NCBI RefSeq assembly: GCF_022045235.1
Contig: NW_027266284.1
Location: 2,604,001-2,668,000 of the forward strand
Origin: Haliotis cracherodii
Lineage: Eukaryota
Reading direction: 5' to 3'
Length of the DNA: 64,000 nt
Position numbers and translations under genes: made by a program. Below are positions 19,501-62,934 of this stretch, piece after piece. The notes below the pieces were generated by a model, which had not been told where the DNA came from, did not search any database, and saw only the letters and a list, made by a program, of their open reading frames with translations. Positions within the stretch are counted from its first letter, which is position 1. Each line of letters opens with the position of its first letter.

Positions 19501-22500
19501 GTGTCTGTCGACTGAGCCTGTGTTCCAGTAGCGTCCAAACGTGCATGCAATGGAGGCATGCATGCTCCTTTTTCGCCATACCAACGACCCTCTTACTCTG
19601 TGTAGCGGATAAACGTGGCGTAAGGTCTTGGTGCTGTTGGTTGAAGTATTCATGACGTGCCGTATCACCAGTTTTATAAAGTACTTTTGCACGTGCACTT
19701 CGGTCTACGTAGCCCAAAGTCGTTGTGGCAAAATGCACGACTTTCACAAATACTGTCAATTCTTCTTCTTGTTTTTTTGCCACCGAATAAATTTGGACGT
19801 ATTCGTGCGACATATTTAAGTCTTAATTTCTTAGGTTATCAAAATAGTTCACCTGTACACCATGAATATGGCTATTGCTCACCTGAATCCCGTGAATATG
19901 GCGATAGCGGGAATCAGAAACAGGATGCTGAGTGCGTCACACACGATGGCCACGATCTGGGTGGCGGTCTCCCCCTACAACAGAACGTCCAGTGGGACAG
20001 GTGCATGCACAGACTACAACAGAACGTCCAGTGGGACAGGTGCATGCACAGACAAGGAAGTTCATATTTCGTGTCATATTAAGGTCAAGTTCTATGCATG
20101 ACGAGAAGTCTTGTCACTCACATTAAGGTCAAGTTCTATGCATGACGAGAAGTCTTGTCACTCACCTAAAGGTCAAGCTATATGCAGGACGAGAAGTCTT
20201 GTCACTCACATTAAGGAGAAAGCTCTATACAGGTCGAGAAGTCTTGTCACTCACATTAAGGTCAAGCTCTATGCAGGACGAGAAGTCTTGTCACTAAGCT
20301 TAATGTCAAGCTCTATGCAGGACGAGAAGTCTTGTCACTCACATTAAGGTCAAGCTCTATGCATGACGAGAAGTCTTGTCACGCACCTAAAGGTCAAGCT
20401 CTATGCAGGACGAGAAGTCTTGTCACTCACATTAAGGAGAAAGCTCTATACAGGTCAAGAAGTCTTGTCACTCACATTAATGTCAAGCTCTATGCAGGAC
20501 GAGAAGTCTTGTCACTCACATTAAGGAGAAAGCTCTATACAGGTTGAGAAGTCTTGTCACTAAGCGTAATGTCAAGCTCTATGCAGGACGAGAAGTCTTG
20601 TCACTCAAATTAAGGAAAAAACTCTATACAGGACCAAAAGTCTTGTCACTAACCTATATGTCAAGTTCTATGCATGACGAGAAGTCTTGTCACACACATT
20701 AAGGTCAAGCTCTATGCAGGACGAGAAGTCTTGTCACTCACATTAAGGTCAAGCTCTATGCAGGATGAGTAGTCTTGTCACTCACATTAAGGTCAAGCTC
20801 TATGCAGGATGAGTAGTCTTGTCACTCACATTAAGGTCAAGCTCTATGCAGGATGAGAAGTCTTGTCACTCACATTAAGGTCAAGCTCTATGCAGGATGA
20901 GTAGTCTTGTCACTCACATTAAGGTCAAGCTATATGCAGGACGAGAAGTCTTGTCACTCACATTAAGGTCAAGCTCTATGCAGGATGAGTAGTCTTGTCA
21001 CTCACATTAAGGTCAAGCTCTATGCAGGTCGAGTAGTCTTGTCACTCACATTAAGGTCAAGCTCTATGCAGGACGAGAAGTCTTGTCACTCACATTAAGG
21101 TCAAGCTCTATGCAGGACGAGAAGTCTTGTCACTCACATTAATGTCAAGCTCTATGCAGGACGAGAAGTCTTGTCACTCACATTAAGGAGAAAGCTCTAT
21201 ACAGGTTGAGAAGTCTTGTCACTAAGCGTAATGTCAAGCTCTATGCAGGACGAGAAGTCTTGTCACTCAAATTAAGGAAAAAACTCTATACAGGACCAAA
21301 AGTCTTGTCACTAACCTATATGTCAAGTTCTATGCATGACGAGAAGTCTTGTCACACACATTAAGGTCAAGCTCTATGCAGGACGAGAAGTCTTGTCACT
21401 CACATTAAGGTCAAGCTCTATGCAGGATGAGTAGTCTTGTCACTCACATTAAGGTCAAGCTCTATGCAGGATGAGTAGTCTTGTCACTCACATTAAGGTC
21501 AAGCTCTATGCAGGATGAGAAGTCTTGTCACTCACATTAAGGTCAAGCTCTATGCAGGATGAGTAGTCTTGTCACTCACATTAAGGTCAAGCTATATGCA
21601 GGACGAGAAGTCTTGTCACTCACATTAAGGTCAAGCTCTATGCAGGATGAGTAGTCTTGTCACTCACATTAAGGTCAAGCTCTATGCAGGTCGAGTAGTC
21701 TTGTCACTCACATTAAGGTCAAGCTCTATGCAGGATGAGAAGTCTTGTCACTCACATTAAGGTCAAGCTCTATGCAGGACGAGAAGTCTTGTCACTCACA
21801 TTAAGGTCAAGCTCTATGCAGGATGAGTAGTCTTGTCACTCACATTAAGGTCAAGCTCTATGCAGGATGAGTAGTCTTGTCACTCACATTAAGGTCAAGC
21901 TCTATGCAGGACGAGAAGTCTTGTCACTCACATTAAGGTCAAGCTCTATGCAGGATGAGTAGTCTTGTCACTCACATTAAGGTCAAGCTCTATGCAGGAC
22001 GAGAAGTCTTGTCACTCACATTAAGGTCAAGCTCTATGCAGGATGAGTAGTCAGTCCACTCCGTGTTGCTCGCGGGTTTCCGCCACCAGGTGCCGTTAGA
22101 TGTGCACTTCCTGTGTGCTCGAGCTTTAACAAATTCCACTTTAGGTTATGTCGGGTATGTACATGTAGCCTTGGAATAGTTTATTTCGCCCCCCGGCAAC
22201 ATCCCTAATACTGTACTTATGATATATAAAGCCTTTCATACATAACTCAAAAGCTTTAATTACTCTCATGAAACCCTTCTTCGGTAAATGGGGCACTTGA
22301 TGGATCAGGCCCTACAATTCCCTTAGCAGAGCTGCATACCCAAGGCATGCTAGAAACGTGGGTTCGAATCCCAGATTCGCCCTGATTATGTTTCTAGGTT
22401 TGTCAGTACTTTATCCTTGCTTGTGGGTTTCACCAAAGTGGTAGTCGTCAACGACATGCATCATCTCATCGGGTTTCCCTACATCAAGCTTGAATATTGC

Positions 22501-40400: not shown

Positions 40401-43400
40401 GCCAAGTCCACAGCCTTGATATATGTGATTCCAAACAGCAGATTATCACAGTCCATGACATCAGTTATCTCATTAAACCTTACTGCACGTAGACAAGATT
40501 GGTGAGATCTGCCCTCTGTGATACACACCTTCTGGAAGTACTGTGGCTTGTATGGGTCCTTGTACTGCTTGAGGGAAAACTCACACGTAGCGTACACCCT
40601 GAGTGTGTAGTGAATACTATTGTTCTTCTCGTACTGCGACACGACCAGCGTGTACAGTGATGTCCCCTTGTTCTCCACCAGTTTACACAGATAGTGCGGA
40701 CTGTTGATCCTCACACCATCCTTATAGGGTGGGGGATCATCTGCAATTGCAATTATAACCCATCATGAAGAGTATGAAAGCCACAGGGTATACAACATCA
40801 ACAAGACAGGGTTCATAATGAACAGCATCAACAAGACAGGGTCCATAATGAACAACATCAACAAGACAGGGTCCATAATGAACAGCATAGAAAAGACAAG
40901 GTCCATAATGAACAGCATCAACAAGACAGGGTCCATAATGAACAGCATCAACAAGACAGGGTCTATAATGAACAGCATCAACAAGACAGGGTTCATAATG
41001 AACAGCATCAACAAGACAGGGTCCATAATGAACAGCATCAACATGACAGGGTCCATAATGAACAGCATCAACAAGACAGGCTCCGTAATGAACAGCATCA
41101 ACAAGACAGGGTTCATAATGAACAGCATCAACAAGACATGGTCCATAATGAACAGCATCAACAAGACAGGGTCCATAATGAACAGCATCAACAAGACAGG
41201 GTCCATAATGAACAACATCAATATGACAGGGTCCATAATGAACAGCATCAACAAGACAGGGTCCATAATGAACAACATCAATATGACAGGGTCCATAATG
41301 AACAGCATCAACAAGACAGGGTCCATAATGAACAACACCAACAAGACAGGGTCCATAATGAACAGCATCAACAAGACAGGGTCCATAATGAACAACATCA
41401 ACGTGACAGGATCTACAACAAACAGCATAAACACGTACCTAGTATTATTAGTGACCCAGCATCTACATGGACAAACTGGGGCCCTCTTCTACTTTCACAC
41501 ACTGACACCTCATCTATTAGTACACACACAATAACTACTACAATATTGATGTGTCATAATAATGTGGCTTACTGAATAACAGACAAAAGTGGTGCTACTC
41601 ACAAGGGTAGAATACTCTCTTGCCTCCAGTCTTGTACACCAGCACGGTGATGAACTCCTTGTTGTCAGCAAAGTCATCCTGGAACACATATCAGAGAGGC
41701 ATTTCAAAAAATCAGACAGAGAATAAATGCACCAAGTCTCACAGAGAACCACTGCAACAAGTCACACAGAGAACCATTGCATAAATTTTCACAAAGACCG
41801 ATTGCATCAATTCTCACAGAGAACCATTGCACCAAGTCTCACAGAGAACCAATGCATCAATTCTCACAGAGAACCACTGCACCAAGTCTCACAGAGAACC
41901 ATTGCAACAAGTCTCACAGAGAACCATTGCAACAATCTCACAAAGAACCATTGCAACAAGTCTCACAGAGAGCCACTGCATCAAGTCTCACAGAGAACCA
42001 CTGCACCAAGTCTCACAAATAACCATTGCAGCAAGTCTCACAAAGAACCATTGCACCAAGTCACACAGAGAACCATTGCAACAAGACTCACAAAGAACCA
42101 TTGCAACAAGTCTCACAAAGAACCATTGCAACACATCTCACAGAGAACCATTGCAACAAGTCTCATAAAGAACCATTGCAACAAGTCTCACAAAGAACCA
42201 TTGCAACAAGTCTCACCACCATTGCAACAAGTCACACAAAGACCGATTGCATCAATTCTCACAGAGAACCATTGCACCAAGTCTCACAGAGAACCATTGC
42301 AGCAAGTCTCACAAAGAACCATTGCACCAAGTCACACAGAGGACCATTGCAACAAGGCTCACAAAGAACCATTGCAACAAGTCTCACAAAGAACCATTGC
42401 AACACATCTCACAGAGAACCATTGCAACAAGTCTCATAAAGAACCATTGCAACAAGTCTCACAAAGAACCATTGCAACAAGTCTCACCACCATTGCAACA
42501 AGTCACACAAAGAACCATTGCAACAAGTCTCACAAAGAACCATTGCAACACATCTCACAGAGAACCATTGCAACAAGTCTCATAAAGAACCATTGCAACA
42601 AGTCTCACAAAGAACCATTGCAACAAGTCTCACCACCATTGCAACAAGTCACACAAAGAACCATTGCAACAAGTCTCACAAAGAACCATTGCAACAAGTC
42701 TCACAACCATTGCAACAAGTCACACAAAGAACCATTGCAACAAGTCTCACAACCATTGCAACAAGTCTCACAAAGAACCATTGCAACAAGTCTCACAAAG
42801 AACCATTGCAACAAGTCTAACAACCATTGCAACATGTCTCACAAAGAACCATTGCAACAAGTCTCACAAAGAACCATTGCAACAAGTCTCACAAAGAACC
42901 ATTGCAACAAGTCTCACAAAGAACCATTGCAACAAGTCTCACAACCATTGCAACAAGTCTCACAAAGAACCACTGCAACAAGTCTCACAAAGAACCACTG
43001 CAACAAGTCTCACAACCATTGCAACAAGTCTCACAAAGAACCACTGCAACAAGTCTCACAAAGAACCATTGCCAAAAAGTCTCACAACCATTGCAACAAG
43101 TCAAACAAGAACAACTTTCCCTATCCCACATGACTTGCCTCATATGTGATATGTCAAATGACTTGGCTCATATGTGATATGTCACATGACTTGCCTCATA
43201 TGTGATATGTCACATGACTTGCCTTATCTGTGATATGTCACATGACCTGGCTTATATGTGACATGTCACATGACTTGCCTTATCTGTGATATGTCACATG
43301 ACTTGCCTTACGTGTGACATGTCACATGACTTGCTTTATCTGTAACATGTCACATGACTTTCTTTATCTGTGATATGTCACATGACTTGCCTTATCTGTG

Positions 43401-46400
43401 ACATGTCACATGACTTGCTTTATCTGTGACATGTCACATGACTTGCCTTATCTGTGACATGTCACATGACTTGCCTTATCTGTGACATGTCACATGACTT
43501 GCCTTATCTGTGACATGTCACATGACTTGCCTTACGTGTGACATGTCACATGACTTGCCTTATCTGTGACATGTCACATGACTTGCCTTATCTGTGATAT
43601 GTCGAGTGAGGAGGATCCACACAGCAGCAGACTTGCTGGCTTTGACCTCCAGGCGATACTGTGGGTTGTCACTTATATTGTAGCTGTCTTTCTTAGGCCC
43701 TTCCTTGGAATGCCAGGAACTGTTGGGACAAGAAACAGACTTTTACACTGCAGAGCTAACAAGTATTGAACAGTATCAAATATGTCTTAAACACTACGTC
43801 TTTACATGCAGGGGATGAAATGATACATGGGTAATCACCAACATCCACACTCCCGTTGTGGGGTCAAGGAACAAAGGTCCCCTTGCTTGCAAGATGGCAA
43901 TTAGTTATGTGATCAAAAGCATTTGTTGTATATTTAAACGCAAGAAGCAAAGTCATATAAACGAACTCGCTGTAGTCGGATCTTGCTCCAATCACTACGA
44001 GGGAGGTGACAATGCTGTACTGGTGTCTCATGACAAGCCTCTCCACAAGAGACTGACACCCTGCAGGAGCTGTCACGTACAAGAATGGCTGAACTGGTGG
44101 ACTTACTGGTGTATGCATGTTGTGTGTGTGAACAGCTCAGGACTCCAGTTGATGTAAAAGACGTCATAGAATGAACATAGGGAGTCATAGTCGATCCAGA
44201 ACACACCTGGCAACACAATGATCACAGTCCACAGACATAGCATCACATTTATCAGAGTTAAAAAGTAAACAGTGTATCCGTCAGCATGTGAAACAGTGCT
44301 TGTCAGAGGTAGAGAGCATTCTATTAAGTTGAAGAAATAGATGACACAAGAAAGTCAGAGGTAAACCTGTTACTGTGTTCATACCATTCATCTCACAGGC
44401 CAACTTTCATCTCACATACCATTATCAAACGTCTGAGCACTTTTTGGATCGTAGTTCAAGGCCTTCTGAAGGTCAGGAGTCCAGTGAGTTGTATCATGTT
44501 CCGAAAAATTTCCTTTCCAGCGTAAATGGTTCCAAGGATTCTTCAGCAAGAACAATCGCTGACCCTAGGGAGTGATACAACCAAAACTGAAGCACAACGT
44601 CTATAAAATAAAGAAATCATTCTTAGTGATGATATGTTTTCATATGACCTTTAAAATCTTTTTATCACTGACCTTGACCTCTCTGACATCCAACATGGCA
44701 TAGGCATGTGTTGGCACTAGTCCAGCTCTGTCGGCATGAGATTCTGACATTTCTCCTGTTGCAACAGTAACCAGACAATGTCCCTTGTGGAAGCGTTCCA
44801 GGAGTCTCTTGAACTCACGGTCCTTGTCAAACTCCTGACTGCCTGGTCTGATGGCCACTCTCTCTGGGATCCATCCAGTCAGGGCATGTAAGTCAATGTT
44901 CTGAAACAACATTTGGTACAGTGATTTCAGCTGTATTCTCAAAGAACAACAAATCATATCAATAAATCAAGCTGAACTGAGGATCTTGAAAGCCAAATCC
45001 ACAACAACTGAACGGGTAATGACAAGTAAATACATGCTTAATGTCTCTTTTATATTTTAGTGACATAAAATCCCATTCAATAACCGAATAAAGGTTTTCA
45101 CAAAACAACTGATATCAATTAGACATCTATTCCTACATACAGAGTTGGAACCCGGGAAGTCGTATCCACCCATGACCTTCATATAGGCCTTCTCCAGGAG
45201 GGACACCCACAGCTCATTCCGATTGGTGGAGAAGGAGCACAGGAGGTCGCCATGTTTACTAACTGGGAAGTAGTCGTCCAGGATAACCTGCAGCAGACAG
45301 AGTGTACATAGAGTGCATAGGGAACACATGGCTCGCTCTCCAGTCACATACAGCAGTACTTCTTAATGGCAGCATTTTTACTACTTGGTAGAAAAACCCT
45401 AAAGAAGCATGCTGATGTCAGCATCTTATTGCAATTGAAAAACAAAGTAGCTTTTGAAGTCATCACTACATGGCTACCTGGCAAGTACTTTAATGTGTCA
45501 CCAGATTTTCCTGATTCCCCATGACTTGGTTGCAAGGATGGTACTTAGACTGAAGAAGATGAAGGCAGGCGACTCCACCTACTGTCCACCTACCTTTCGA
45601 TGCACACCGTTGATGTTGAGTTTGACCATGTATTTCCCACATGGGTTGTACACAGGGTCTCCCTGACGGTTCTGGGGGTAAATGATGCTGCAAAGGACAG
45701 ATGAAAATGTGTAGAATGTATCTAAGCTAACCTAAATACACTAATTTGTAGTAAAACACAAACAGCAACAGTATATTCAGCCTAGAACACAGGAACAACA
45801 GTACTAACTAGCACTAAACAATGACCCGAGGACGTCAGAAGGACCTTTCATCCGAACATTCAGAGCGTCTTACCAGCTGATGAAAATGACAGTCGGAATG
45901 TGTTTCGTAATCATGCAACCCCCAAAAAGGTTAACACAAGGTATTCTGAATGACAGTTACAAGTTGTAGACTGATTCTGTCAAAAGCATTGTCTATACTT
46001 CAATGGGATAAACATTTGAACAAAAGAGACTATGCATATCCCATGGTAAGCTCTGTCATACAGTTTCGGCCATGTATAAGACATTCCAGAATATTCTTTT
46101 GTTTATTTTTCAAATTTTGAATTGTGAAAACAATCTTCAAAGCGTAGTCTAAAATGGAAGTAGCCAGTTTAAAACTAGCACTGTATAGCTTGAGAAAGCT
46201 GTTTTCTGATTGGCTAACATCAACTTCTTATCAGTCATTTCATTGATGGGTCAAAGAACATGAAAAGTTGTCCTCATGTGACCTGTAATGGGATGTCCTG
46301 AGATCTTTGTTTAGCCGTCGCTAGAACTAATGAGCTTGAGTTGACCAGTGGGCTGCCTGCGTCCCCACTCTCTCCAAGTTGAGGGTGTTGTGAGGATGTC

Positions 46401-49400
46401 ACACTCACTCACCTGGTGATCAGCTTCTTCTTGAACCTCCTCTCATACTGTGCACTGATGGCCACTGATGCTACAAAACTGCAGTCTGACACTATGGTCT
46501 GAAACACAACACTTTATATCAGGGCTGTTCCTGCTTTTCCAGTAAATCTCTTTCACAACTTATACAACACATAGTTATTTCATTATTGATATGAAGAGAG
46601 ATCAAACTGTCATTAACTTAAAATGGCAATTCAATTTGTCTGATGTTCTTTAAACAGTCCTCACCTGCCAAAATACAAGTAAAGCTCCTCACTAGTCAAT
46701 ATGTACAGACAGGTAATAGTCCCTACCTGCCTGATGTTCAGGTAACACTAATCACCTGTCTGATGTTCAGATAATACTAATCACCTGTCTGATGTACAGG
46801 TAACACTAATCACCTGCCTGATGTTCAGGTAATACTAATCACCTGTCTGATGTTCAGGTAACACTAATCACCTGTCTGATGTTCAGGTAATACTAATCAC
46901 CTGTCTGATGTACAGGTAACACTAATCACATGTCTGATGTACAGGTAACACTAATCACCTGCCTGATGTTCAGGTAACACTAATCACCTGTCTGATGTTC
47001 AGGTAATACTAATCACCTGTCTGATGTTCTGGTAACACTAATCACCTGTCTGATGTTCAGGTAACACTAATCACCTGTCTGATGTACAGGTAACACTAAT
47101 CAACCTCTGATGTACAGGTAACACTAATCACCTGTCTGATGTTCAGGTAACACTAATCACCTGTCTGATGTACAGGTAACACTAATCAACCTCTGATGTA
47201 CAGGTAACACTAATCACCTGTATGATGTTCAGGTAACACTAATCACCTGTCTGATGTTCAGGTAACACTAATCACCTGTCTGGTGTACAGGTAACACTAA
47301 TCACCTGCCTGATGTTCAGGTAACACTTATGATCTGTCTGATGTTCAGGTAACACTAATCACCTGTCTGATGAACAGGTAACACTAATCACCTGTCTGAT
47401 GTACAGGTAACACTAATCACCTGTCTGATGTACAGGTAACACTAATCACCTGTCTGATGTACAGGTAATATTCACAATCTCCTGATGAAGCTTTCCTCAC
47501 CTGTCTGATGCTAAAAGGAGAAACAGCCAGGATCATCTTGGGATCCTCACAGAAATCTTCAGCTCGAGCCCACTTGCCAAACTGTGACCTCTGTTTTGGG
47601 GACATAGCCAGCTTCCCATCCTTATCACTATAACAACATATCCAGAGTTACTTCCTATCCCTGTCACTAGAACATCATATCCAGAGTTACTTCCCTTCTC
47701 TGTCACTAGAACATCATATCCAGAGTTACTTCCCATCCCTGTCACTAGAACATCATATCCAGACTTACTTCCCTTCCCTGTCACTAGAACATCATATCCA
47801 GAGTTACTTCCTATCCCTGTCACTAGAACATCATATCCGGACTTACTTCCCTTCCCTGTCACTAGAACATCATATCAAGAGTTACTTCCCATCCCTGTCA
47901 CTAGAACAGCATATCCAGAGTTACTTCCCATCCCTGTCACTAGAACAGCATATACAGAGTTACTTTCCTTCCCTGATACTAGAACAGCATATCCAGACTT
48001 ACTTCCCTTCCCTGTCAATTGACCAACATATCCAGAGTTACTTCCCATCCCTGTCACTAGAACATCATATACAGAGTTACTCCCCTTCCCTGTCAATTGA
48101 CCAACATATCCAGAGTTACTTCCCATCCCTGTCACTAGAACATCATATCCGGAGTTACTTCCCATCTCTGCCACTAGAACAGCATATCCAGAGTTACTTC
48201 CCATCCCTGTCACTAGAACATCATATCCGGAGTTACTTCCCTTCCCTTTCAATTGACCAACATATCCAGAGCTACTTCCCTTCCCTGTCACTAGAACAGC
48301 ATATCCAGAGTTACTTCTAGTTACTGTCACTGTAACAGCATATCCAGAGTTACTTCCCTTTTCTGTCACAAGAACAGCATATCCAGAGTTACTTCCCATA
48401 TCCAGAGTTACTCCCCTTCCCTGATACTACAACAGCATATCCAAAGTTACTTCCCTTCCCTGTTACTAGACCAACATATCCAGAGTTACTTCCCATCCCT
48501 GTCACTAGAACAACATATCCAGAGTTACTTCCCTTCCCTCTCACTAGAACACCATATCCAGAGTTACTTCCCTTCCCTGTCTTTAGAACAACATATCAAG
48601 AGTTACTTCCAGTTACTGTCACTGGAACAGCATATTCAGAGTTACTTCCCATCCCTGTCACTAGACCATATATCTAGAGTTATTTCCCATCCCTGTCACT
48701 AGACCATATATCTAGAGTTATTTCCCATCCCTGTCACTAGAACAACATATCCAGAGTTACTTCCAGTTACTGTTACTGGAACAGCATATCCAGAGTTACC
48801 GTATTTCGAAATAATAAGCGCCCCGCTCTAATAAGCGCCCACGGCGATATTTGCTAATATATTGGCTAGTGAACAATACATATTAGCACCCCTTCCGATT
48901 GATCAATGTACAGAACACTTATTTATTCGCGTAAAATGCGCACTCGTGTTTTACTTGCACCCTTAATTATGGGCAATTAAATTCAGGGAAAATGTATTTC
49001 TCATATATAAACATTTCAGGCTGTCAGCATAAACCACAAAATTTATCTTTCAACTCTGTTTTTTCCCCACCAAAATAATATTCATATAAGAGCCCCCTAT
49101 TTCTAATTAGGGGGGCAGGCCCTGGGCGCTTATTACGTTGAATACGGTACTTCCCATCCCTGTCACTAGACCATATATCCAGAGTTACTTCCCATCCCTG
49201 TCACGAGAACATCATATCCAGAGTTACTTCCCCTCTAACTAGACCAACATATCCAGAGTTACTTCCCTTCCCTCTAACTAGAACCAAGCTCCTTCCCAGC
49301 GCGTGACACCTTCGTTACACTCTCGGTAACATCGCTGCCACCAGTGTGGGCGCGGCCATTTCAAGAATCTTGAAATTTGCCCTCCAACACCATATGTAGT

Positions 49401-52400: not shown

Positions 52401-55400
52401 ACAGCAACATGTAAATAATCTAAAGTGTGGACCAGAAAATCCCTTGATCAACATAATCACCATTGATCCAAGCCATGTGGGCGCTATGAAACGCAATCAA
52501 GAAAGTTGTCGATCCTGACAACCCATTCTACAAGCTACCTCCTACACCAAGCACAGTTTGCTGTGGACCAAGTGTAATCTGGGAGCTTCCTGTGAAGGAC
52601 TGGTGTCTGACTCCAGCATATGACAAGGGACATTCACTTGGGACACATAGCTTATTCTAAGTAACACCAACTGTCTTTTAATAAAGAAATTTCAGGCATG
52701 TCAAACATGAAAAATTGGTGCTGTCATGAACAATGGATAGTTTGTATCATTCACTTCTGAACAATGCAGCAACGTGCAATGGGATCAGTCAGCATGGAGA
52801 ATCACCCATATGCACATCTGCATAGATTGGAAGGTAATTACACTTGCTCTTTCAATATCAAGGGTTATTATTTTTCAAACCAGGTGATTTAGTTTTCATG
52901 GAAACAGCCATTGAAGCACGAAGTCGTGTTTGTCTCACTGTGTGATTAGCAATATTCCAGCTACCTTACAGCACCCTGACACCACAGTCGGGGTATGATG
53001 ACACCCTATCAGCCAAGTCACTGAGCCGACCACCTGTTCTATACAGAATCATCACAGAATTACTACACAAAGAAGCTATGAAAGGGAGTGCTCCACAAAA
53101 AAAAAAAATAAACGTTAGTACTAACAACATTGACAATGTCAACAAATGTTATCAATACACATACACTTTTGCCACAAATACTCATTAACAATACTCCTGC
53201 AACAGATACCATTTATTTCATTAACAAACTTTGACACAAGATTGATATCTAACTAAGCCTAGCTGCCTGAAATGCTTCTTAATAGACTTAATAGGCATTT
53301 TGTATTTTTTTAATGATCCAGATTATAAGACAGCTAAATAGTTACTGAACTTCTTTCATAGGCATTTAGAATTACTAAGTAAGAATAAGAATTTATGGAA
53401 GAACAAGTTCTTTATTATAATTAAGAGCAACGTTTTGGTGTAGGTTCTAACACCATTAACATCAAGCAAGTGATATCAAGCCACAAGCTAGAACCATCAG
53501 GAGCAGTGTACCACATTCCGTGCAATTGTGGACAAGCTTACATAGGAGAAACATCTAGGACCCTCAAAACCCGAATTAAAGAACTTCAAAACTCAGTCTC
53601 CAAAGATGACTCCAAACCAGCTCTATCAGACCACATCCATGACAACCCAAGCCACAGCATTCAGTGGGATAAAGTCAAAGCCCTCACCACCAACCTCAAA
53701 GACTTCAAAATCAGAAAACTAAAGAAAAAGAAAAAGAGGCCATCAACATCAAAAGACTCCAACCGTCAATCAACTGTGACCATTCCCCCATCCTATCCCT
53801 GCCCCATCCCCCGTCGTACCATCAACTCATCAAAGACCCCAATCAGCCATAATCCCATTGTTTATAATTACTGGCTTCATCCTTTGTTTATGTCACTGAC
53901 TTCACCGATGATCGTCATTACTACCCTTGTGTGTACATAACAGGCTTCTCTCCTGCAGTATAACTACAGCTGATATCTACTCTACTGTATAAACATTGCC
54001 TCCTACCTGTATATATTCTTGTCAACCACACTCTGTATATCACTGATAATTGTGTTAGAACCTACACCGAAATGTAGCTCTTAATTATAATAAAGAACTT
54101 GTTCATCCATAAATTCTTATCCTTGAACAGTTACTTGTTTTCAGTGCATCTGATTCTGAATGTCATGTTGGACTACCTACTATTTTGATAAATAGTTCCA
54201 CAGCTTCTGAGTACAGTTCAACAGCATCTTCTTCATTGTCATTCTCATCCTCGTCAAATGCCTGATGAAGGAGGAACTGGGCTCGTTCCAGATCTTGCTG
54301 CAAGACACAATGACTCACTGTATACTACCCATAGTAACAGCATCAAGAGAGGAACTGGGCTCCAGATCTTGCTGCAAGACACAGTGACTCACTGTATACT
54401 ACCCATGCTAACAGCATCAAGAGGAGGAACTGGGCTCACTCCAGATCTTGCTGCAAGACACAGTGACTCACTGTATACTACCCATAGTAACAGCATCAAG
54501 AGGAGGAACTGGGCTCCAGATCTTGCTGCTAGACACAGTGACTCACTGTATACTACCCATGCTAACAGCATCAAGAGGAGGAACTGGGCTCCAGATCTTG
54601 CTGCAAGACACAGTCTCACTGTATACTACCCATGCTAACAGCATCAAGAGGAGGAACTGGGCTCACTCCAGATCTTGCTGCAAGACACAGTGACTCACTG
54701 TATACTACCCATGCTAACAGCATCAAGAGGAGGAACTGGGCTCACTCCAGATCTTGCTGCAAGACACAGTGACTCACTGTATACTACCCATAGTAACAGC
54801 ATCAAGAGGAGGAACTGGGCTCCAGATCTTGCTGCTAGACACAGTGACTCACTGTATACTACCCATGCTAACAGCATCAAGAGGAGGAACTGGGCTCCAG
54901 ATCTTGCTGCAAGACACAGTCTCACTGTATACTACCCATGCTAACAGCATCAAGAGGAGGAACTGGGCTCCAGATCTTGCTGCAAGACACAGTGACTCAC
55001 TGTATACTACCCATGCTAACAGCATCAAGAGGAGGAACTGGGCTCACTCCAGATCTTGCTGCAAGACACAGTGACTCACTGTATACTACCCATGCTAACA
55101 GCATCAAGAGGAGGAACTGGGCTCCAGATCTTGCTGCAAGACACAGTGACTCACTGTATACTACCCATGCTAACAGCATCAAGAGGAGGAACTGGGCTCA
55201 CTCCAGATCTTGCTGCAAGACACAGTGACTCACTGTATACTACCCATGCTAACAACATCAAGAGGAGGAACTGGGCTCCAGATCTTGCTGCAAGACACAG
55301 TGACTCACTGTATACCACCCATGCTAACAGCATCAAGAGGAGGAACTGGGCTCACTCCAGATCTTGCTGCAAGACACAGTGACTCACTGTATACTACCCA

Positions 55401-58400
55401 TGCTAACAGCATCAAGAGGAGGAACTGGGCTCCAGATCTTGCTGCAAGACACAGTGACTCACTGTATACTACCCATGCTAACAGCATCAAGAAGAGGAAC
55501 CGGGCTCAGTCCAGATCTTGCTGCAAGACACAATGACTCACTGTATACTACCCATGCTAACAGCATCAAGGGGAGGAACTGGGCTCCAGATCTTGCTGCA
55601 AGACACAGTGACTCACTGTATACTATCCATGCTAACAGCATCAAGAGGAGGAACTGGGCTCACTCCAGATCTTGCTGCAAGACACAGTGACTCACTGTGT
55701 ACTACCCATAGTAACAGCAACAAGAGGAGGAACTGGGCTCCAAATCTTGCTGCAAGACACAGTGACTCACTGTATACTACCCATGCTAACAGCATCAAGA
55801 GGAGGAACTGGGCTCCAGATCTTGCTGCAAGACACAGTCTCACTGTATACTACACATGCTAACAGCATCAAGAGGAGGAACTGGGCTCACTCCAGATCTT
55901 GCTGCAAGACACAGTGACTCACTGTATACTACCCATAGTAACAGCATCAAGAGGAGGAACTGGGCTCACTCCAGATCTTGCTGCAAGACACAGTGACTCA
56001 CTGTATACTACCCATGCTAACAACATCAAGAGGAGGAACTGGGCTCAATCCAGATCTTGCTGCAAGACACAGTGACTCACTGTATACTACCCATGCTAAC
56101 AGCATCAAGAGGAGGAACTGGGCTCACTCCAGATCTTGCTGCAAGACACAGTGACTCACTGTATACTACCCATGCTAACAGCATCAAGAGGAGGAACTGG
56201 GCTCCAGATCTTGCTGCAAGACACAGTGACTCACTGTATACTACCCATGCTAACAGCATCAAGAAGAGGAACTGGGCTCAGTCCAGATCTTGCTGCAAGA
56301 CACAATGACTCACTGTATACTACCCATGCTAACAGCATCAAGGGGAGGAACTGGACTCCAGATCGTGCTGCAAGACACAGTGACTCACTGTATACTACCC
56401 ATGCTAACAGCATCAAGAGGAGGAACTGGGCTCACTCCAGATCTTGCTGCAAGACACAATGACTCACTGTATACTACCCATGCTAACAGCATCAAGAGGA
56501 GGAACTGGGCTCACTCCAGATCTTGCTGCAAGACACAGTGACTCACTGTATACCACCCATGCTAACAGCATCAAGAGGAGGAACTGGGCTCCAGATCTTG
56601 CTGCAAGACACAGTGACTCACTGTATACTACCCATGCTAACAGCATCAAGAGGAGGAACTGGGCTCACTCCAGATCTTGCTGCAAGACACAGTGACTCAC
56701 TGTATACTACCCATAGTAACAGCATCAAGAGGAGGAACTGGGCTCACTCCAGATCTTGCTGCAAGACACAGTGACTCACTGTATACTACCCATGCTAATA
56801 GCATCAAGAAGAGGAACTGGGCTCCAGATCTTGCTGCAAGACACAGTGACTCACTGTATACTACCCATGCTAACAACATCAAGAGGAGGAACTTGGCTCA
56901 CTCCAGATCTTGCTGCAAGACACAATGACTCACTGTATACTACCCATGCTAACAGCATCAAGAGGAGGAACTGGGCTTCAGATCTTGCTGCAAGACACAG
57001 TGACTCACTGTATACTACCCATGCTAACAACATCAAGAGGAGGAACTGGGCTTCAGATCTTGCTGCTAAACACAGTGACTCACTGTATACTACCCATGCT
57101 AACAGCATCAAGAGGAGGAACTGGGCTCACTCCAGATCTTGCTGCAAGACACAGTGACTCACTGTATACTACCCATGCTAAAAACATCAAGAGGAGGAAC
57201 TGGGCTCACTCCAGATCTTGCTGCAAGAAACAGTGACTCACTGTATACTACCCATAGTAACAGCATCAAGAGGAGGAACTGGGCTTGCTCCAGATCTTGC
57301 TGCAAGACACAGTGACTCACTGTATACCACCCATAGTAACAGCATCAAGAGGAGGAACTGGGCTCACGCCAGATCTTGATTAATCTCATTAAAATCAGAC
57401 CTCAGTTCTCGCGACCGCTAAACAAAGATCTGAAGACATCCCATTAGGGGTCACGTCAGACCGACCTTTCATCCGACCAATCAGAGCATCGCTTACCAGA
57501 TTGTGAAAGTGACATGCAACCTCGAAAACTTTAACTCCGAACACTAGTTACGGTTTTAACGACTGACTCCATACAATCTAGACCATCTATTAGCCATCCC
57601 AGAATGTTCTTTTGTTCAGGTTTCAAATTTGTAATCGAGAATTTGTCAGAATATGTTTCGAAGCGTAGTCGCCAATTTGAAATTAGTGCTGTAAAACACG
57701 AGAAAACTGCCTTCTGATTGGTCGGTCAAAGTTCGCGCAAGGTCGGTCTGACGTGACCCGTAATGAGATGTCCTCAGATCTTTGTTTAGCGGTAGCGAGA
57801 ACTAAGATCTGATTTTAATGAGATTGGATCTTGCTGCAAGACACAGTGACTCACTGTATACTACCCATGCTAACAACATCAAGAGGAGGAACTGGGCTCA
57901 CTCCAGATCTTGCTGCAAGACACAGTGACTCACTGTATGCTACCCATGCTAACAGCATCAAGAGGAGGAACTGGGCTTCAGATCTTGCTGCAAGACACAG
58001 TGACTCACTGTATACTACCCATGCTAACAGCATCAAGAGGAGGAACTGGGCTTCAGATCTTGCTGCAAGACACAGTGACTCACTGTATACTACCCATGCT
58101 AACAACATCAAGAGGAGGAACTGGGCTCCAGATCTTGCTGCAAGACACAGTGACTCACTGTATACTACCCATGCTAACAACATCAAGAGGAGGAACTGGG
58201 CTCCAGATCTTGCTGCTAAACACAGTGACTCACTGTATACTACCCATGCTAACAGCATCAAGAGGAGGAACTGGGCTCACTCCAGATCTTGCTGCAAGAC
58301 ACAGTGACTCACTGTATACTACCCATGCTAAAAACATCAAGAGGAGGAACTGGGCTCACTCCAGATCTTGCTGCAAGAAACAGTGACTCACTGTATACTA

Positions 58401-61400
58401 CCCATGCTAACAGCATCAAGAGGAGGAACTTGGCTTGCTCCAGATCTTGCTGCAAGACACAGTGACTCACTGTATACCACCCATAGTAACAGCATCAAGA
58501 GGAGGAACTGGGCTCACGCCAGATCTTGATTAATCTCATTAAAATCAGACCTCAGTTCTCGCGACCGCTAAACAAAGATCTGAAGACATCCCATTAGGGG
58601 TCACGTCAGAACAACCTTTCATCCGACCAATCAGAGCATCGCTTACCAGATTGTGAAAGTGACATGCAACCTCGAAAACTTTAACTCCGAACACTAGTTA
58701 CGGTTTTAACGACTGACTCCATACAATCTAGACCATCTATTAGCCATCCCAGAATGTTCTTTTGTTCAGGTTTCAAATTTGTAATCGAGAATTTGTCAGA
58801 ATATGTTTCGAAGCGTAGTCGCCAATTTGAAATTAGTGCTGTAAAACACGAGAAAACTGCCTTCTGATTGGTCGGTCAAAGTTCGCGCAAGGTCGGTCTG
58901 ACGTGACCCGTAATGAGATGTCCTCAGATCTTTGTTTAGCGGTAGCGAGAACTAAGATCTGATTTTAATGAGATTGGATCTTGCTGCAAGACACAGTGTC
59001 TCACTGTTTACTACCCATGCTAACAACATCAAGAGGAGGAACTGGGCTCACTCCAGATCTTGCTGCAAGACACAGTGACTCACTGTATACTACCCATGCT
59101 AACAGCATCAAGAGGAGGAACTGGGCTTCAGAACTTGCTGCAAGAAACAGTGACTCACTGCATACCACCCATGCTAACAACATCAAGAGGAGGAACTTGG
59201 CTCCAGATCTTGCTGCAAGCTCTCTATCTCAATGTGTGCTTCATGTAAAATGCTGCGTATTATTCCAGATGACTATACCTGTTGTTGACTTTTGCCAGGG
59301 AGCTGTGCTTTGTTGTTGGGTGTCTGACTAGAAACTGAAATCACATAAATATACAACAGTAAACATATCTTTAATGTTTCTCATCATTCATGGTGTTATC
59401 TGTGTGCTACTATTGACTGAGTTGTCAATCCTGGCAAACCTAACTAAACCTACCCAAAGTATATCTGCAGTATGGGAAGACTCTCTCATTGTGTGCATTG
59501 CCTACTCTCTGGGAAGACTCTCTACCTCAATGTGTGCAATGTCTACTCTCTGGGAAGACTCTCTACCTCAATGTGTGCAATGTCTACTCTCTAGGAAGAC
59601 TCTCTACCTCAATTTGTGCAATGTCTACTCTCTGGGAAGACTCTCTACCTCAATGTGTGCAATGTCTACACTCTAGGAAGACTCTCTACCTCAATGTGTG
59701 CAATGTCTACTCTCTGGGAAGACTCTCTACCTCAATGTGTGCAATGTCTACTCTCTAGGAAGACTCTGTACCTCAATGTGTGCAATGTCTACTCTCTGGG
59801 AAGACTCTGTACCTCAATGTGTGCATGGCCTACTCTCTAGGAAGACTCTGTACCTCAATGTGTGCAATGTCTACTCTCTGGGAAGACTCTGTACCTCAAT
59901 GTGTGCAATGTCTACTCTCTGGGAAGACTCTCTACCTCAATGTGTGCAATGTCTACTCTCTGGGAAGACTCTGTACCTCAATGTGTGCAATGTCTACTCT
60001 CTGGGAAGACTCTCTACCCCAATGTGTGCAATGTCTACTCTCTGGGAAGACTCTCTACCTCAATGTGTGCAATGTCTACTCTCTGGGAAGACTCTCTACC
60101 TCAATGTGTGCAATGTCTACTCTCTAGGAAGACTCTCTACCTCAATTTGTGCAATGTCTACTCTCTGGGAAGACTCTCTACCTCAATTTGTGCAATGTAT
60201 ACTCTCTAGGAAGACTATCTACCTCAATGTGTGCAATGTCTACTCTCTGGGAAGACTCTCTACCTCAATTTGTGCAATGTCTACACTCTGGGAAGACTCT
60301 ATCTCAGTGTGCAATGCCTACACCTTGGAAGACTCTCCATCTCAGAGTGTGCAATGCCTACACCTTGGAAGACTCTATCTCAGTGTGCAATGCCTACACC
60401 TTGGGAAGACTCTATCTCAGTGTACAATGCCTACACCTTGGGAAGACTCTATCTCAGTGTGCAATGCCTACACCTTGGGAAGACTCTATCTCAGTGTGCA
60501 ATGCCTACACCTTGGGAAGACTCTATCTCAGAGTGCAATGCCTACACCTTGGGAAGACTCTATCTCAGAGTGCAATGCCTACACCTTGGAAGACTATCCA
60601 TCTCAGAGTGTGCAATGCCTACACCTTGGGAAGACTCTATCTCAGTGTGCAATGCCTACACCTTGGAAGACTCTCTATCTCAATGTGTGCATTGTCTCCA
60701 CCTTGGGAAGACTCTATCTCAGTGTGCAATGCCTACACCTTGGAAGACTCTAACAATGCATAGGCTGACTCTCTATCTCATCAGAAACTATCGGAAAATC
60801 ATATGAAAACTTGAATATTGACATGCTGTGAGCATTATTATTGTACTCACCTGACTGTTTGAGTGCTTCAGCTTGCAGCATGTACTCACCTGACTGTTTG
60901 TGTGCTTCAGCTTGCAGCATGTACTCACCTGACTGTTTGAGTGCTTCAGCTTGCAGCATGTACTCACCTGACTGTTTGTGTGCTTCAGCTCGCAGCATGT
61001 ACTCACCTGACTGTTTGAGTGCTTCAGCTCGCAGCATGTACTCACCTGACTGTTTGAGTGCTTCAGCTTGCAGCATGTACTCACCTGACTGTTTGTGTGC
61101 TTCAGCTCGCAGCATGTACTCACCTGACTGTTTGAGTGCTTCAGCTCGCAGCATGTACTCACCTGACTGTTTGAGTGCTTCAGCTCGCAGCATGTACTCA
61201 CCTGACTGTTTGAGTGCTTCAGCTTGCAGCATGTACTCACCTGACTGTTTGTGTGCTTCAGCTTGCAGCATGTACTCACCTGACTGTTTGAGTGCTTCAG
61301 CTCGCAGCATGTACTCATTAGCCTTGTCCAGTATGACCTGGTTGCGGGAGCTATCCGAGCCTCCCAGAGCAGCAGACAGGAGAGCCTGGGCTGCTTCCTG

Positions 61401-62255
61401 CAACACAAGTGGTCCAATATCTCAGTATATAGTCCTTATCTAAAACGTTTCCTGCACCGTACAGCATCAAAACATCTTTCCAGGTGAATAAATATGTAAC
61501 AAATGTCATGAACTGGACAACAATTATGATAATACAACATTAATATGATATTATATTTATATTATGTCTAAAGGGGCGTGAAACTATCCAGATACTTTTC
61601 AATAACTTTATGTAAAGAAAACAACAAAGCCAGCCATAAGGCTCACCTGAATGTTTCAAGCAAGTATGCAACATCAGGTTGTAGGTCATACTAAAACAGT
61701 GCTCAAGGTAAATGTGTCAGTCAAATGTTGACTTTGACAGGAAGGTCTCGATTGATTTAACTTGCACCAGGTGCATGTTGATATGAAAACTTAGTTGCAC
61801 CAGACATAACCAGGTTGTGTGGAAAAGTAATTCTAAGTCAGATAAAAATTTGACAAAGAAAATTACATGCACTTGGTGCATGTTGACATAAATATTAGGT
61901 TGCATTTTTCAATACTAGGTTGCACTTGTGCATGTTTTATGTTGTTGAATAGATCTCTGACAGGTCTATACAAATGTTATAAAAACATACCTCTCTAGCA
62001 GCATGTTTTTATAATAATCTGAACATTTGGTGAAGATGATCCTATCTTTCTATGATGACTTTTAAAGACTTAAAATGTTAGAAGTATCCTCAAATTCTAG
62101 CTGTGAACATGGTACAAGCTTACTATGTAATAAAACTTGGCCGTCTCGTAGTTTCCAACTTGGTCAAACTGTACAGCCTGATGAGCATACATTCCTGCAT
62201 CCCGCTCCAACACTGCCGAGTCAACACCATGGTAGCCTGATGTTGGGTCCCCCAT
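37411..62255 (-). CDS. CAPN7: Calpain-7 (PalBH; MIT-MIT-CysPc-CBSW-CBSW), 847 aa: join(62124..62255,61280..61397,59279..59334,54181..54297,51699..51766,51207..51446,49983..50069,47501..47627,46413..46498,45594..45687,45141..45287,44673..44900,44420..44564,44107..44206,43587..43719,41603..41678,40529..40740,38794..38933,38263..38355,37411..37555)
   Basis: MIT1 [30 protein letters not shown]; MIT2 [17 protein letters not shown]; catalytic triad motifs [21 protein letters not shown] and LKNPW; C-terminus [19 protein letters not shown]. Exons sum to 2544 nt in frame; 18 GT-AG introns and one GC-AG. Confidence 0.95.
37720..38252. repeat. 32-bp minisatellite in the last CAPN7 intron
   Basis: Unit tggactataagggagcaaacactgatatcatc. 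Confidence 0.9.
38418..38690. repeat. 43-bp minisatellite (about 6 copies) with TTG|GTGAGT donor-like motifs in the CAPN7 sense
   Basis: Unit actcaccaagtggaatagtgcacccatgtgc(a/t)tcaataatcag. Confidence 0.9.
40790..41430. repeat. 30-bp minisatellite, about 21 copies
   Basis: Unit aacagcatcaacaagacagggtccataatg. Confidence 0.95.
41727..43102. repeat. 25-bp minisatellite with shorter variants
   Basis: Unit aaccattgcaacaagtctcacaaag. Confidence 0.95.
43128..43603. repeat. 28-bp minisatellite (about 17 copies) spanning the GC donor of CAPN7 exon 15
   Basis: Minus-strand unit GACATGTCACAGATAAG|GCAAGTCATGT. Confidence 0.95.
45812..46332. mobile_element. Degenerate copy of the 9-bp-TSD MITE family
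   Basis: Shares acgtcagaaggacctttcatccga, agcgtagtc, ttctgattgg and gtaatgggatgtcctgagatctttgtttagc with 34121-34607. Confidence 0.7.
46722..47470. repeat. 29-bp minisatellite (about 25 copies) copying the CAPN7 exon 8 donor
   Basis: Minus-strand unit gttacctg(a/t)aCATCAGACAG|GTGAttagt; the real donor is gCATCAGACAG|GTGAGG at 47501. Confidence 0.9.
47612..49284. repeat. 39-bp minisatellite (over 30 copies) copying the CAPN7 exon 8 acceptor
   Basis: Minus-strand unit gttctag|TGACAGGGATGGGAAGtaactctggatatg; the real site is gttatag|TGATAAGGATGGGAAG. Confidence 0.9.
48799..49147. mobile_element. Tc1/mariner-type (pogo/Tigger-like) MITE with TA duplication, inserted in the 39-bp array
   Basis: TA|CCGTATTTCGAAATAATAAGCGCCC...GGGCGCTTATTACGTTGAATACGG|TA splits the unit ccagagtta/cttccc. 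Confidence 0.85.
49285..49815. mobile_element. Possible MITE at the distal end of the 39-bp array
   Basis: caagctcc..cagcg / cgctgtgggagcttg inverted ends; a degenerate array unit resumes after it. Confidence 0.45.
53381..54124 (+). mobile_element. 5'-truncated Penelope-like element: GIY-YIG endonuclease remnant flanked by inverted partial pseudo-LTR
   Basis: [43 protein letters not shown]; inverted repeat of about 70 bp at 53381-53454 and 54051-54124. Confidence 0.85.
57381..57826. mobile_element. MITE, 9-bp-TSD family
   Basis: Same TIRs as 34121-34607; TSD gatcttgat / gatcttgct. Confidence 0.9.
58531..58976. mobile_element. MITE, near-identical duplicate of 57381-57826
   Basis: Offset 1150 bp, identical flanks, differs at about 2 nt. 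Confidence 0.9.
59473..60750. repeat. 41-bp minisatellite grading into a ~38-bp variant, CAPN7 intron 2
   Basis: Unit gggaagactctctacctcaatgtgtgcaatgtctactctct. Confidence 0.95.
60843..61317. repeat. 39-bp in-frame minisatellite giving 12 copies of the CAPN7 exon 2 donor
   Basis: CAGTCAG|GTGAGTAC every 39 bp from 61280 to 60851. Confidence 0.95.
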
Positions 62256-62934
62256 AACTACTCTGTCAAAGTGCTGTCTCCCCCTTATTCAATGACACTG
62301 TTGGTACAAACTGACCAAATCACATCATCTGCAAATACAGAAATAAACTGCTCTGGTCAACCATGAACGTGTAAATTGACCAACTTCCACAGTTCAGACT
62401 CGGTCTAGATGCTTGGAGAGTATGGCCAACATACACACAAAAAATAAGTTCAGTGTTTCAGATATATTTTCATCTGCCAGTAAAATGCTATTCAAATCTA
62501 AAATACAGAATGCGTAACCTCTATCTTCCAGTTGAAAAGGGAAGGCAGAGTGAAATCCCTAGAGGACAATATACAAATTATTACGGTCAGATACAGTTTT
62601 TCAAAAACATGTAGTCAATCTATTTTTGAAAAAAGTATATCTGTTATTTATTCAGTGTGTAACTCTTGATCAGAGCTACGTTTGCTCCAAATACCCTGGT
62701 AGGCTCATCAACATTGTGATTGATAAATGTGCTTGAGTTGGTCCAATATGAATTGTATACTTGCCCCTGGACATTTATTTCATAACCTGCATCGCCAAAA
62801 TATGAAATGCACAGGTAACATGTTCACATTCATCACACAGGGGCATTTTACACAGTGTTGTCATAGTTAAACATATATGTTTTTTACTGTCAAATACAAA
62901 ATTAGTAAAGTCTAAATATTTTTTTTATTTGTAT

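Follow-up and report, generated by a model that had tools for sequence, protein, structure and literature searches.

At the boundary between coding exon 2 and intron 2 of the calpain-7 gene (CAPN7) of the abalone Haliotis cracherodii, the 5' splice site is part of a minisatellite and recurs, in the same reading frame, in every copy. The question raised by this locus is which of these donors are used. An earlier note had proposed a ladder of isoforms, in which 0 to 11 additional copies of a 13-residue peptide follow the first MIT domain (MIT1). The reading that we favour, with a probability of roughly 0.8, is a junction minisatellite in which the first donor is used, while copies 2-12 are likely silent pseudo-donors that are removed with the intron. 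Here, the window is the whole stretch of DNA that was analysed (64 000 nucleotides), and a slash within a motif marks the exon-intron boundary.

Structure of the junction array

All 12 copies of the 39-bp unit end in CAG/GTGAGT on the minus strand, at a constant spacing of 39 bp, with the exon-side G of the donors at 61280, 61241 and so on down to 60851 (Table 1). The last 39 nt of exon 2 form copy 1, copies 2-12 lie in the intron, and the unit is made up of 38 exonic bases and one G. Read in the frame of exon 2, the array encodes GEYML(R/Q)AEA(L/H)KQS and is free of stop codons up to the last donor, beyond which unique intron sequence follows. There are two variable sites per unit, at unit positions 16 and 28, which distinguish 8 of the 11 downstream copies from the exon copy; the other three, with donors at 61163, 61124 and 61007, match it at these sites. 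The word TGAGTACA is found at each end of the array (61317-61310 and 60849-60842). The 12-copy array is real and not a chance arrangement, and it has the features of a junction minisatellite, namely a unit that spans a real exon-intron boundary and a splice signal that is repeated in the copies.

The structural part of the earlier note is borne out by these data. This includes the 12 identical in-frame donors at 39-bp spacing, the unique intron after the most distal donor, the 8-nt microhomology (TGAGTACA) common to exon and donor, the gene, phase and peptide (coding exon 2, phase 1, of a CDS that is that of calpain-7), and the calculated maximum of 143 extra residues.

Table 1. Features of the junction array, of CAPN7 and of other splice site ladders (window coordinates, except for the last four rows)
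Feature	Position	Strand	Evidence or remarks
CAPN7 exon with ATG	62124..62328	-	CDS part 62255-62124; contigs
CAPN7 coding exon 2, 118 nt, phase 1, end of MIT1	61280..61397	-	CDS; contig joints
39-bp junction minisatellite, 12.2 copies	60842..61318	-	TRF, period 39, 97 % matches; exon 2/intron 2 junction
5' splice site CAG/GTGAGT, copy 1, authentic, used	61274..61282	-	Contigs of X2, X3 and X4
Exonic copy of 8-nt microhomology TGAGTACA	61310..61317	-	Sequence; likely seed of first duplication (inferred role)
Intronic copy of 8-nt microhomology TGAGTACA	60842..60849	-	Sequence; right behind donor 60851
CAPN7 coding exon 3, 56 nt, MIT1-MIT2 linker	59279..59334	-	CDS; contigs
41-bp minisatellite, same intron, unrelated; marker for unspliced RNA or DNA	59485..60751	.	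TRF
Exon 4 acceptor ladder with exon start, 75/79 bp, 51 matches including the real one, stop-bearing	54269..59219	-	TRF
Exon 8 acceptor ladder, 39 bp, in-frame TAA in the copies printed	47612..48799	-	CDS comparison
Exon 8 end plus GT array, 29 bp, 17 copies besides the real donor, out of frame	46725..47468	-	
Exon 15 GC donor ladder (AAG/GCAAGT), 28 bp, 17 copies, out of frame	43127..43603	-	TRF, CDS
44-bp donor ladder, 45 copies, AAT/GTGAGT, hormone-receptor-domain exon	20074-22052	-	Donor inferred
Other calpain/myosin donor ladder, period 61	L019:6304-6702		
Other calpain/myosin donor ladder, period 79	L058:1707-2273		
Other calpain/myosin donor ladder, period 26	L031:1920-3099		
Other calpain/myosin donor ladder, period 36	L011:5512-5658		

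The calpain-7 gene

A CDS of 20 exons with AG acceptors and GT or GC donors was the sole solution found, and it translates exactly to P0121, the calpain-7-like isoform X1 of H. cracherodii (847 aa). Pfam detects two MIT domains, Peptidase_C2 and Calpain_III in the window CDS, and this architecture, together with orthology, identifies the gene as calpain-7. The best match of the window exon is a calpain-7-like sequence of Haliotis asinina (96 % identity), and a sequence search of the PDB gave weak matches only (8uc6, calpain-7, E 0.81). Exon 2 is bounded by the spliced contig joints 61396-62123 and 59334-61280. Upstream, contigs cover 62123-62328 and then extend for 30-41 letters, and an AG acceptor precedes 62328, from which we infer a further 5' UTR exon upstream of the ATG exon. 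An ORF at 58964-58836 was at first a candidate for exon 3, but was rejected because it has another occurrence near 46330 and is absent from the CDS.

Other repeats are present in the introns of this gene. RNA-type contigs contain the intron 1 repeat at 61650-61990 in great abundance (summed depth in the hundreds to thousands, with many loose ends), and it is probably a transcribed MITE- or SINE-like family. A dispersed element recurs at 58684-58964, at 46033-46408 and also from 57830 downward, and has been inserted at least once into the exon 4 acceptor array. Elsewhere in the window, there is an armadillo-repeat exon (Pfam Arm) at 184-570 (minus strand), presumably of a gene resembling SPAG6/PF16, and broken ORFs at 5026-5870 (minus strand) that we take to resemble a retrotransposon integrase region.

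Donor choice in assembled transcripts

Contigs were examined from 6 RNA-type runs (X1, X2, X3, X4, X6 and X13) of 18, representing 6 studies and organism codes A-D, and one DNA-type run (X19) was compared alongside. No run is on record as RNA, and these six were treated as such on the grounds that exons are joined at GT-AG ends in their contigs. All of the RNA evidence consists of assembled contigs, from which rare forms are dropped and in which identical copies are collapsed. The four runs compared on exon 1 each have two or three differences from the window, and therefore appear to come from related abalones (congeners) other than the window's species, with arrays that differ. Unit variants also differ among runs X1 and X19, and the contigs collapse the array and hence carry no copy number.

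Full-length contigs of 3359, 3217 and 3332 nt from X2, X3 and X4, respectively (3 of the 6 RNA-type runs, from three studies and three organism codes), contain exon 1, exon 2 with a single unit, and exon 3. In each, 61280 is joined to exon 3 (joint 59334-61280), and exactly 1945 nt with the ends CT..AC are skipped. All contigs that span exon 2 to exon 3 use 61280. The mRNA contigs of X1, X6 and X13 break within the unit (30-38 letters), and these runs thus fit donor 61280 or any identical downstream copy. Joints at 61007 in X1 and X6 were considered as proof of distal donor use and rejected, as only 38 and 30 letters, respectively, lie on that side, and 61280, 61163, 61124 and 61007 are identical over these stretches. 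Among the joints listed for the six RNA-type runs, no join to exon 3 from a distinguishable downstream copy was found. This includes X1, where none of the seven records has a unit with variant letters joined to exon 3, though such units are present in that run. The array is represented in X19, including its distal end, and an exon 2-exon 3 joint was not found there.

Regular splicing at the authentic site is therefore retained in the three runs that show it, with none to the contrary, and this applies to the major form. Normal calpain-7 is the major product. The earlier note had stated that its ladder would fall if all transcripts were spliced at 61280 only; this is what is found for the major form, but it cannot be extended to all transcripts, since contigs drop rare forms.

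The same joints bear on a proto-splice-site (Rogers-type) model, in which a CAG within the array serves as an acceptor, turning a unit into a 39-nt mini-exon and giving rise to a new intron. Each unit does contain CAG/GT, and a model of this kind has been proposed for the 'mirage' minisatellites of amphioxus (PMC3087553). However, the 17 nt before the CAGs of the array contain 6-7 pyrimidines, compared to 8-14 at the 19 real acceptors, and no joint among those listed has an array CAG as acceptor. We give this model almost no credence.

Protein records

The calpain-7 records of H. cracherodii, Haliotis rufescens and H. asinina are 847 aa long and contain one copy of the peptide each, as do the shorter isoform X2 records (774 aa), which begin at Met74. 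No 13-residue repeat was found within the first 220 aa of any of the 97 homologues with a length of at least 400 aa. A query with the read-through peptide matched two calpain-7 proteins of the ordinary kind in a set of 7996 longer candidates, and none of the 7998 candidates of similar length was matched; this is weak evidence. Neither the six runs nor the protein searches revealed a spliced mRNA or a protein with an extra unit, noting that contigs can miss rare forms, and the proposed ladder of 0 to 11 copies is thus unsupported.

The isoform X2 records P0122 (H. cracherodii) and P0124 (H. rufescens) lack most of MIT1, and the Met74 ATG at which they start lies inside the exon 2 repeat unit (window 61311, minus strand). 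They could arise from skipping of the ATG exon, or from an error of the gene model caused by reads that were mapped to the array.

Origin of repeat-bearing contigs

A second reading, which we consider unlikely, is that the first donor is dominant but not exclusive, and that a few percent of splicing takes place at the second or third donor, or now and then at a later one. The resulting mRNAs, being in frame, would not be subject to nonsense-mediated decay and would encode minor forms of calpain-7 with 13 or 26 residues added between MIT1 and MIT2; these forms would have no selected role. In favour of this, all of the donors share one sequence, human CBS and 6-16 make use of two extra sites (PMC1557585), and contigs in which unit follows unit were found in all five runs with pieces listed (X1, X2, X3, X4 and X13) and, judged by depth, also in X6. 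Were an extended isoform common, unit-unit words would be expected near the depth of the mRNA. The leftover repeat contigs of X2, X3 and X4 have depths of 2.05, 2.72 and 2.6, against mRNA depths of 28.4, 17.4 and 28.2, i.e. ratios of 0.07, 0.16 and 0.09, with contig depth a rough measure.

A contig of X2 (depth 2) crosses the distal donor unspliced into unique intron, and one of X13 (depth 2.8) leaves the array into intron-type sequence; in X13, inflow to and outflow from the unit are about balanced (3.8 and 3.4). Low-depth contigs of X4 and X13 extend over the 41-bp array in the same intron, which is also covered in X19. Because these contigs cover intron, unspliced RNA or DNA can account for the repeat words in X2, X4 and X13. 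Minor use of later donors is further opposed by window copies 2 and 3, which carry variant letters while no variant unit is joined to exon 3 among the joints listed, and by the human F7, LMNB2 and PDGF arrays, where only the authentic site is used (PMC1557585). In X19, the 41-bp array is shorter by 387 bases (window 60379-60767), a difference in length between the X19 organism and the window.

X1 is the least explained run and the main result against the reading of the repeat as silent. Its repeat contigs have depths of 5.5-6.7 compared to 16-17 for the mRNA (about a third), there is no cover of the unique intron, and a path in the graph leads from the repeat into the exon 3 contig. One diverged contig on the 41-bp array has a depth of 55.4. 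The missing cover of the unique intron in X1, X3 and X6 proves nothing, and X1 is compatible both with collapsed pre-mRNA and with some use of a later donor.

The open frame and unit variants

A third reading is that distal donors are used substantially, with the frame kept open so that linker length, or extra copies of the terminal helix of MIT1, tunes the binding of IST1. The frame is open over all 11 extra units, and the array has persisted, as runs from at least four organism codes (A-D) contain it. An insert would lie between the tandem MIT domains, each of which binds one IST1 motif in calpain-7; the same source describes the human linker as disordered (PMC10586806), and its exact length may therefore matter little. 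We regard this reading as very improbable, and for the major transcript it is already largely refuted, with no ladder transcript or protein found.

An open frame is not in itself a rare outcome. Among the conceivable duplications across the exon 2 donor, 1256 of 3986 (31.5 %) are open in frame, and the open frame is largely a matter of chance, about a one-in-three event at this donor. As the unit is 38 exon bases plus a G, an open frame is passed on to it provided that its period is divisible by three. The earlier note had described this array as the only one open throughout. This holds among the six splice site ladders examined, when read in the frame of the gene, but not among arrays generally, since 10 of the 26 arrays in the window have some fully open frame.

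No sign of coding constraint on the units was found, in small numbers, as both of the variable sites in the window are non-synonymous (R>Q and L>H). Three further variants were recorded in the runs, one stop and two synonymous. A contig of X1 (depth 5.5) includes a unit with an in-frame CGA>TGA stop plus one synonymous change, the stop-bearing unit being that of a single contig in a single run, and another synonymous change was found in X19. The stop and the R>Q change fall on one CpG, which, with the small numbers in mind, suggests neutral decay of methyl-cytosine.

Other splice site ladders

Five further ladders were found in the window (Table 1). Four are in CAPN7 and all of these are out of frame or stop-bearing, which also argues against a frame maintained for function. 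The fifth, the 44-bp donor ladder, belongs to a neighbouring class B GPCR-like gene (exons from about 23200 to 10900). The exon 4 acceptor ladder has about 50 copies, spread across more than 4 kb, and is interrupted by a non-repeat insert at 58516-58976. Transcripts skip these roughly 50 pseudo-acceptors, joining exon 3 to the real exon 4, and loose contig ends at 59279 in X1, X4 and X13 read the authentic exon 4 start. Wherever a ladder was checked against RNA, splicing takes place at the site closest to the exon body, in agreement with the prediction of exon definition.

Elsewhere in the genome (G000), donor ladders were found at 4 of 93 sampled exon matches, a slight overstatement of the rate as 23 loci of one array-free myosin-like cluster were left out of the 93; none is open in frame. 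Their periods are 61, 79, 36 and 26, the last with a short offset. The sample comprised 81 calpain matches, 3 MIT matches and 9 of 117 myosin matches, and the ends of HMM matches were used as approximate exon ends. When these are combined with the donor ladders of the window other than the exon 2 array (n=7; periods 28, 29, 44, 61, 79, 26 and 36), one of seven periods is a multiple of three and none of the seven ladders is open. Among arrays of all kinds in the sampled loci, 24 of 63 have a period divisible by three. On this comparison there is no sign of selection for frame among donor ladders, the sample being small. Loci L043-L070 (G000:C12, 64.6-64.96 Mb) form a tandem cluster of about 14 myosin-head genes, and the stretches sampled there are without minisatellites, unlike CAPN7.

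Possible origin and significance

In the silent-repeat reading, the first duplication could have been produced by slippage, or guided by microhomology, between two TGAGTACA words, and the array may then have expanded and been homogenized through unequal exchange or slippage. The first donor would be chosen by exon definition or 5'-to-3' scanning. It gives an exon of 118 nt, whereas the downstream donors would give 157-547 nt; the 18 internal exons of the gene span 56-240 nt. The open frame would be an unselected consequence of a copied unit that consists of 38 coding bases and a G.

As found, the array carries little weight, being one more junction minisatellite in a genome with many, in a gene from which a normal protein is made. 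It has modest value as a natural test substrate for donor choice among identical 5' splice sites. Use of a downstream donor would not be masked by nonsense-mediated decay here, since all of the donors keep the reading frame, and a count from long reads would gauge how strictly an invertebrate spliceosome takes the first of several identical sites. A ladder, if found, would reveal a route from intronic to coding repeat. That some tissue, stage or genotype uses downstream donors at a real share, so that the repeat sets, in frame and by way of splicing, the number of 13-residue MIT1-end copies between the two IST1-binding domains, is in our view improbable. If it were true, this would be a junction repeat turning into a coding repeat, and the repeat-rich contigs of X1 would be its trace.

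Comparison with known systems

The abalone array is a junction minisatellite of the 'mirage' or F7 IVS7 type, and likely an ordinary and mostly silent member of this kind, which is known from lancelets and humans. We found no relevant paper on junction repeats in abalone or molluscs, and nothing relevant in the literature on the human VNTR cases UPF3A, NOC4L and CUL4A. The accessible part of PMC10078293 contains nothing on reiterated donors, and VNTR nomenclature is treated in PMC2630376.

At the protein level, the window gene does not differ from known calpain-7 (CAPN7/PalBH; P0121, P0123 and P0001; human, 8UC6). The two MIT, Peptidase_C2 and Calpain_III domains are shared and the CDS is identical to P0121; the introns alone are unusual.

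The mirage minisatellites of amphioxus (Adh3 and the globins BflGb6 and BflGb9) are tandem copies over exon-intron boundaries, of donor and acceptor types, with several per gene; many keep AG/GT, and they are reported to leave regular splicing undisturbed (PMC3087553). In Adh3, the units are 10-72 bp, and somatic or allelic instability of length is reported (PMC3087553). CAPN7 likewise has several junction arrays, at both types of boundary and with units of tens of bases. However, the abalone array is in a gastropod, 38 of the 39 nt of its unit are exonic and it is open in frame.

In intron 7 of human F7 (IVS7), the first unit of a 37-bp VNTR spans the junction, the pseudo-sites are functional yet unused, and the most upstream site is chosen; exon definition and 5'-to-3' scanning were tested in this system (PMC1557585). 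The first unit of the CAPN7 array also spans the boundary and is followed by identical 5' pseudo-sites, with the most upstream site used. The F7 unit consists of 4 exonic and 33 intronic bases and is not a multiple of three, whereas the CAPN7 unit has 38 exonic bases and one more. Silence was demonstrated by mutagenesis for F7, but for CAPN7 only by the assembled contigs of related species.

Further junction-spanning minisatellites, in which the donor is reiterated 10-25 times, compared to 12 in CAPN7, are the 31-bp VNTR of CBS intron 13, the minisatellite in intron 2 of the interferon-inducible 6-16 gene, and those of LMNB2 and PDGF (PMC1557585). The two extra sites used in CBS and 6-16 have no counterpart in the CAPN7 contigs, where minor use is possible, and the use of the authentic site only, as in LMNB2 and PDGF, is the same as that found for CAPN7.
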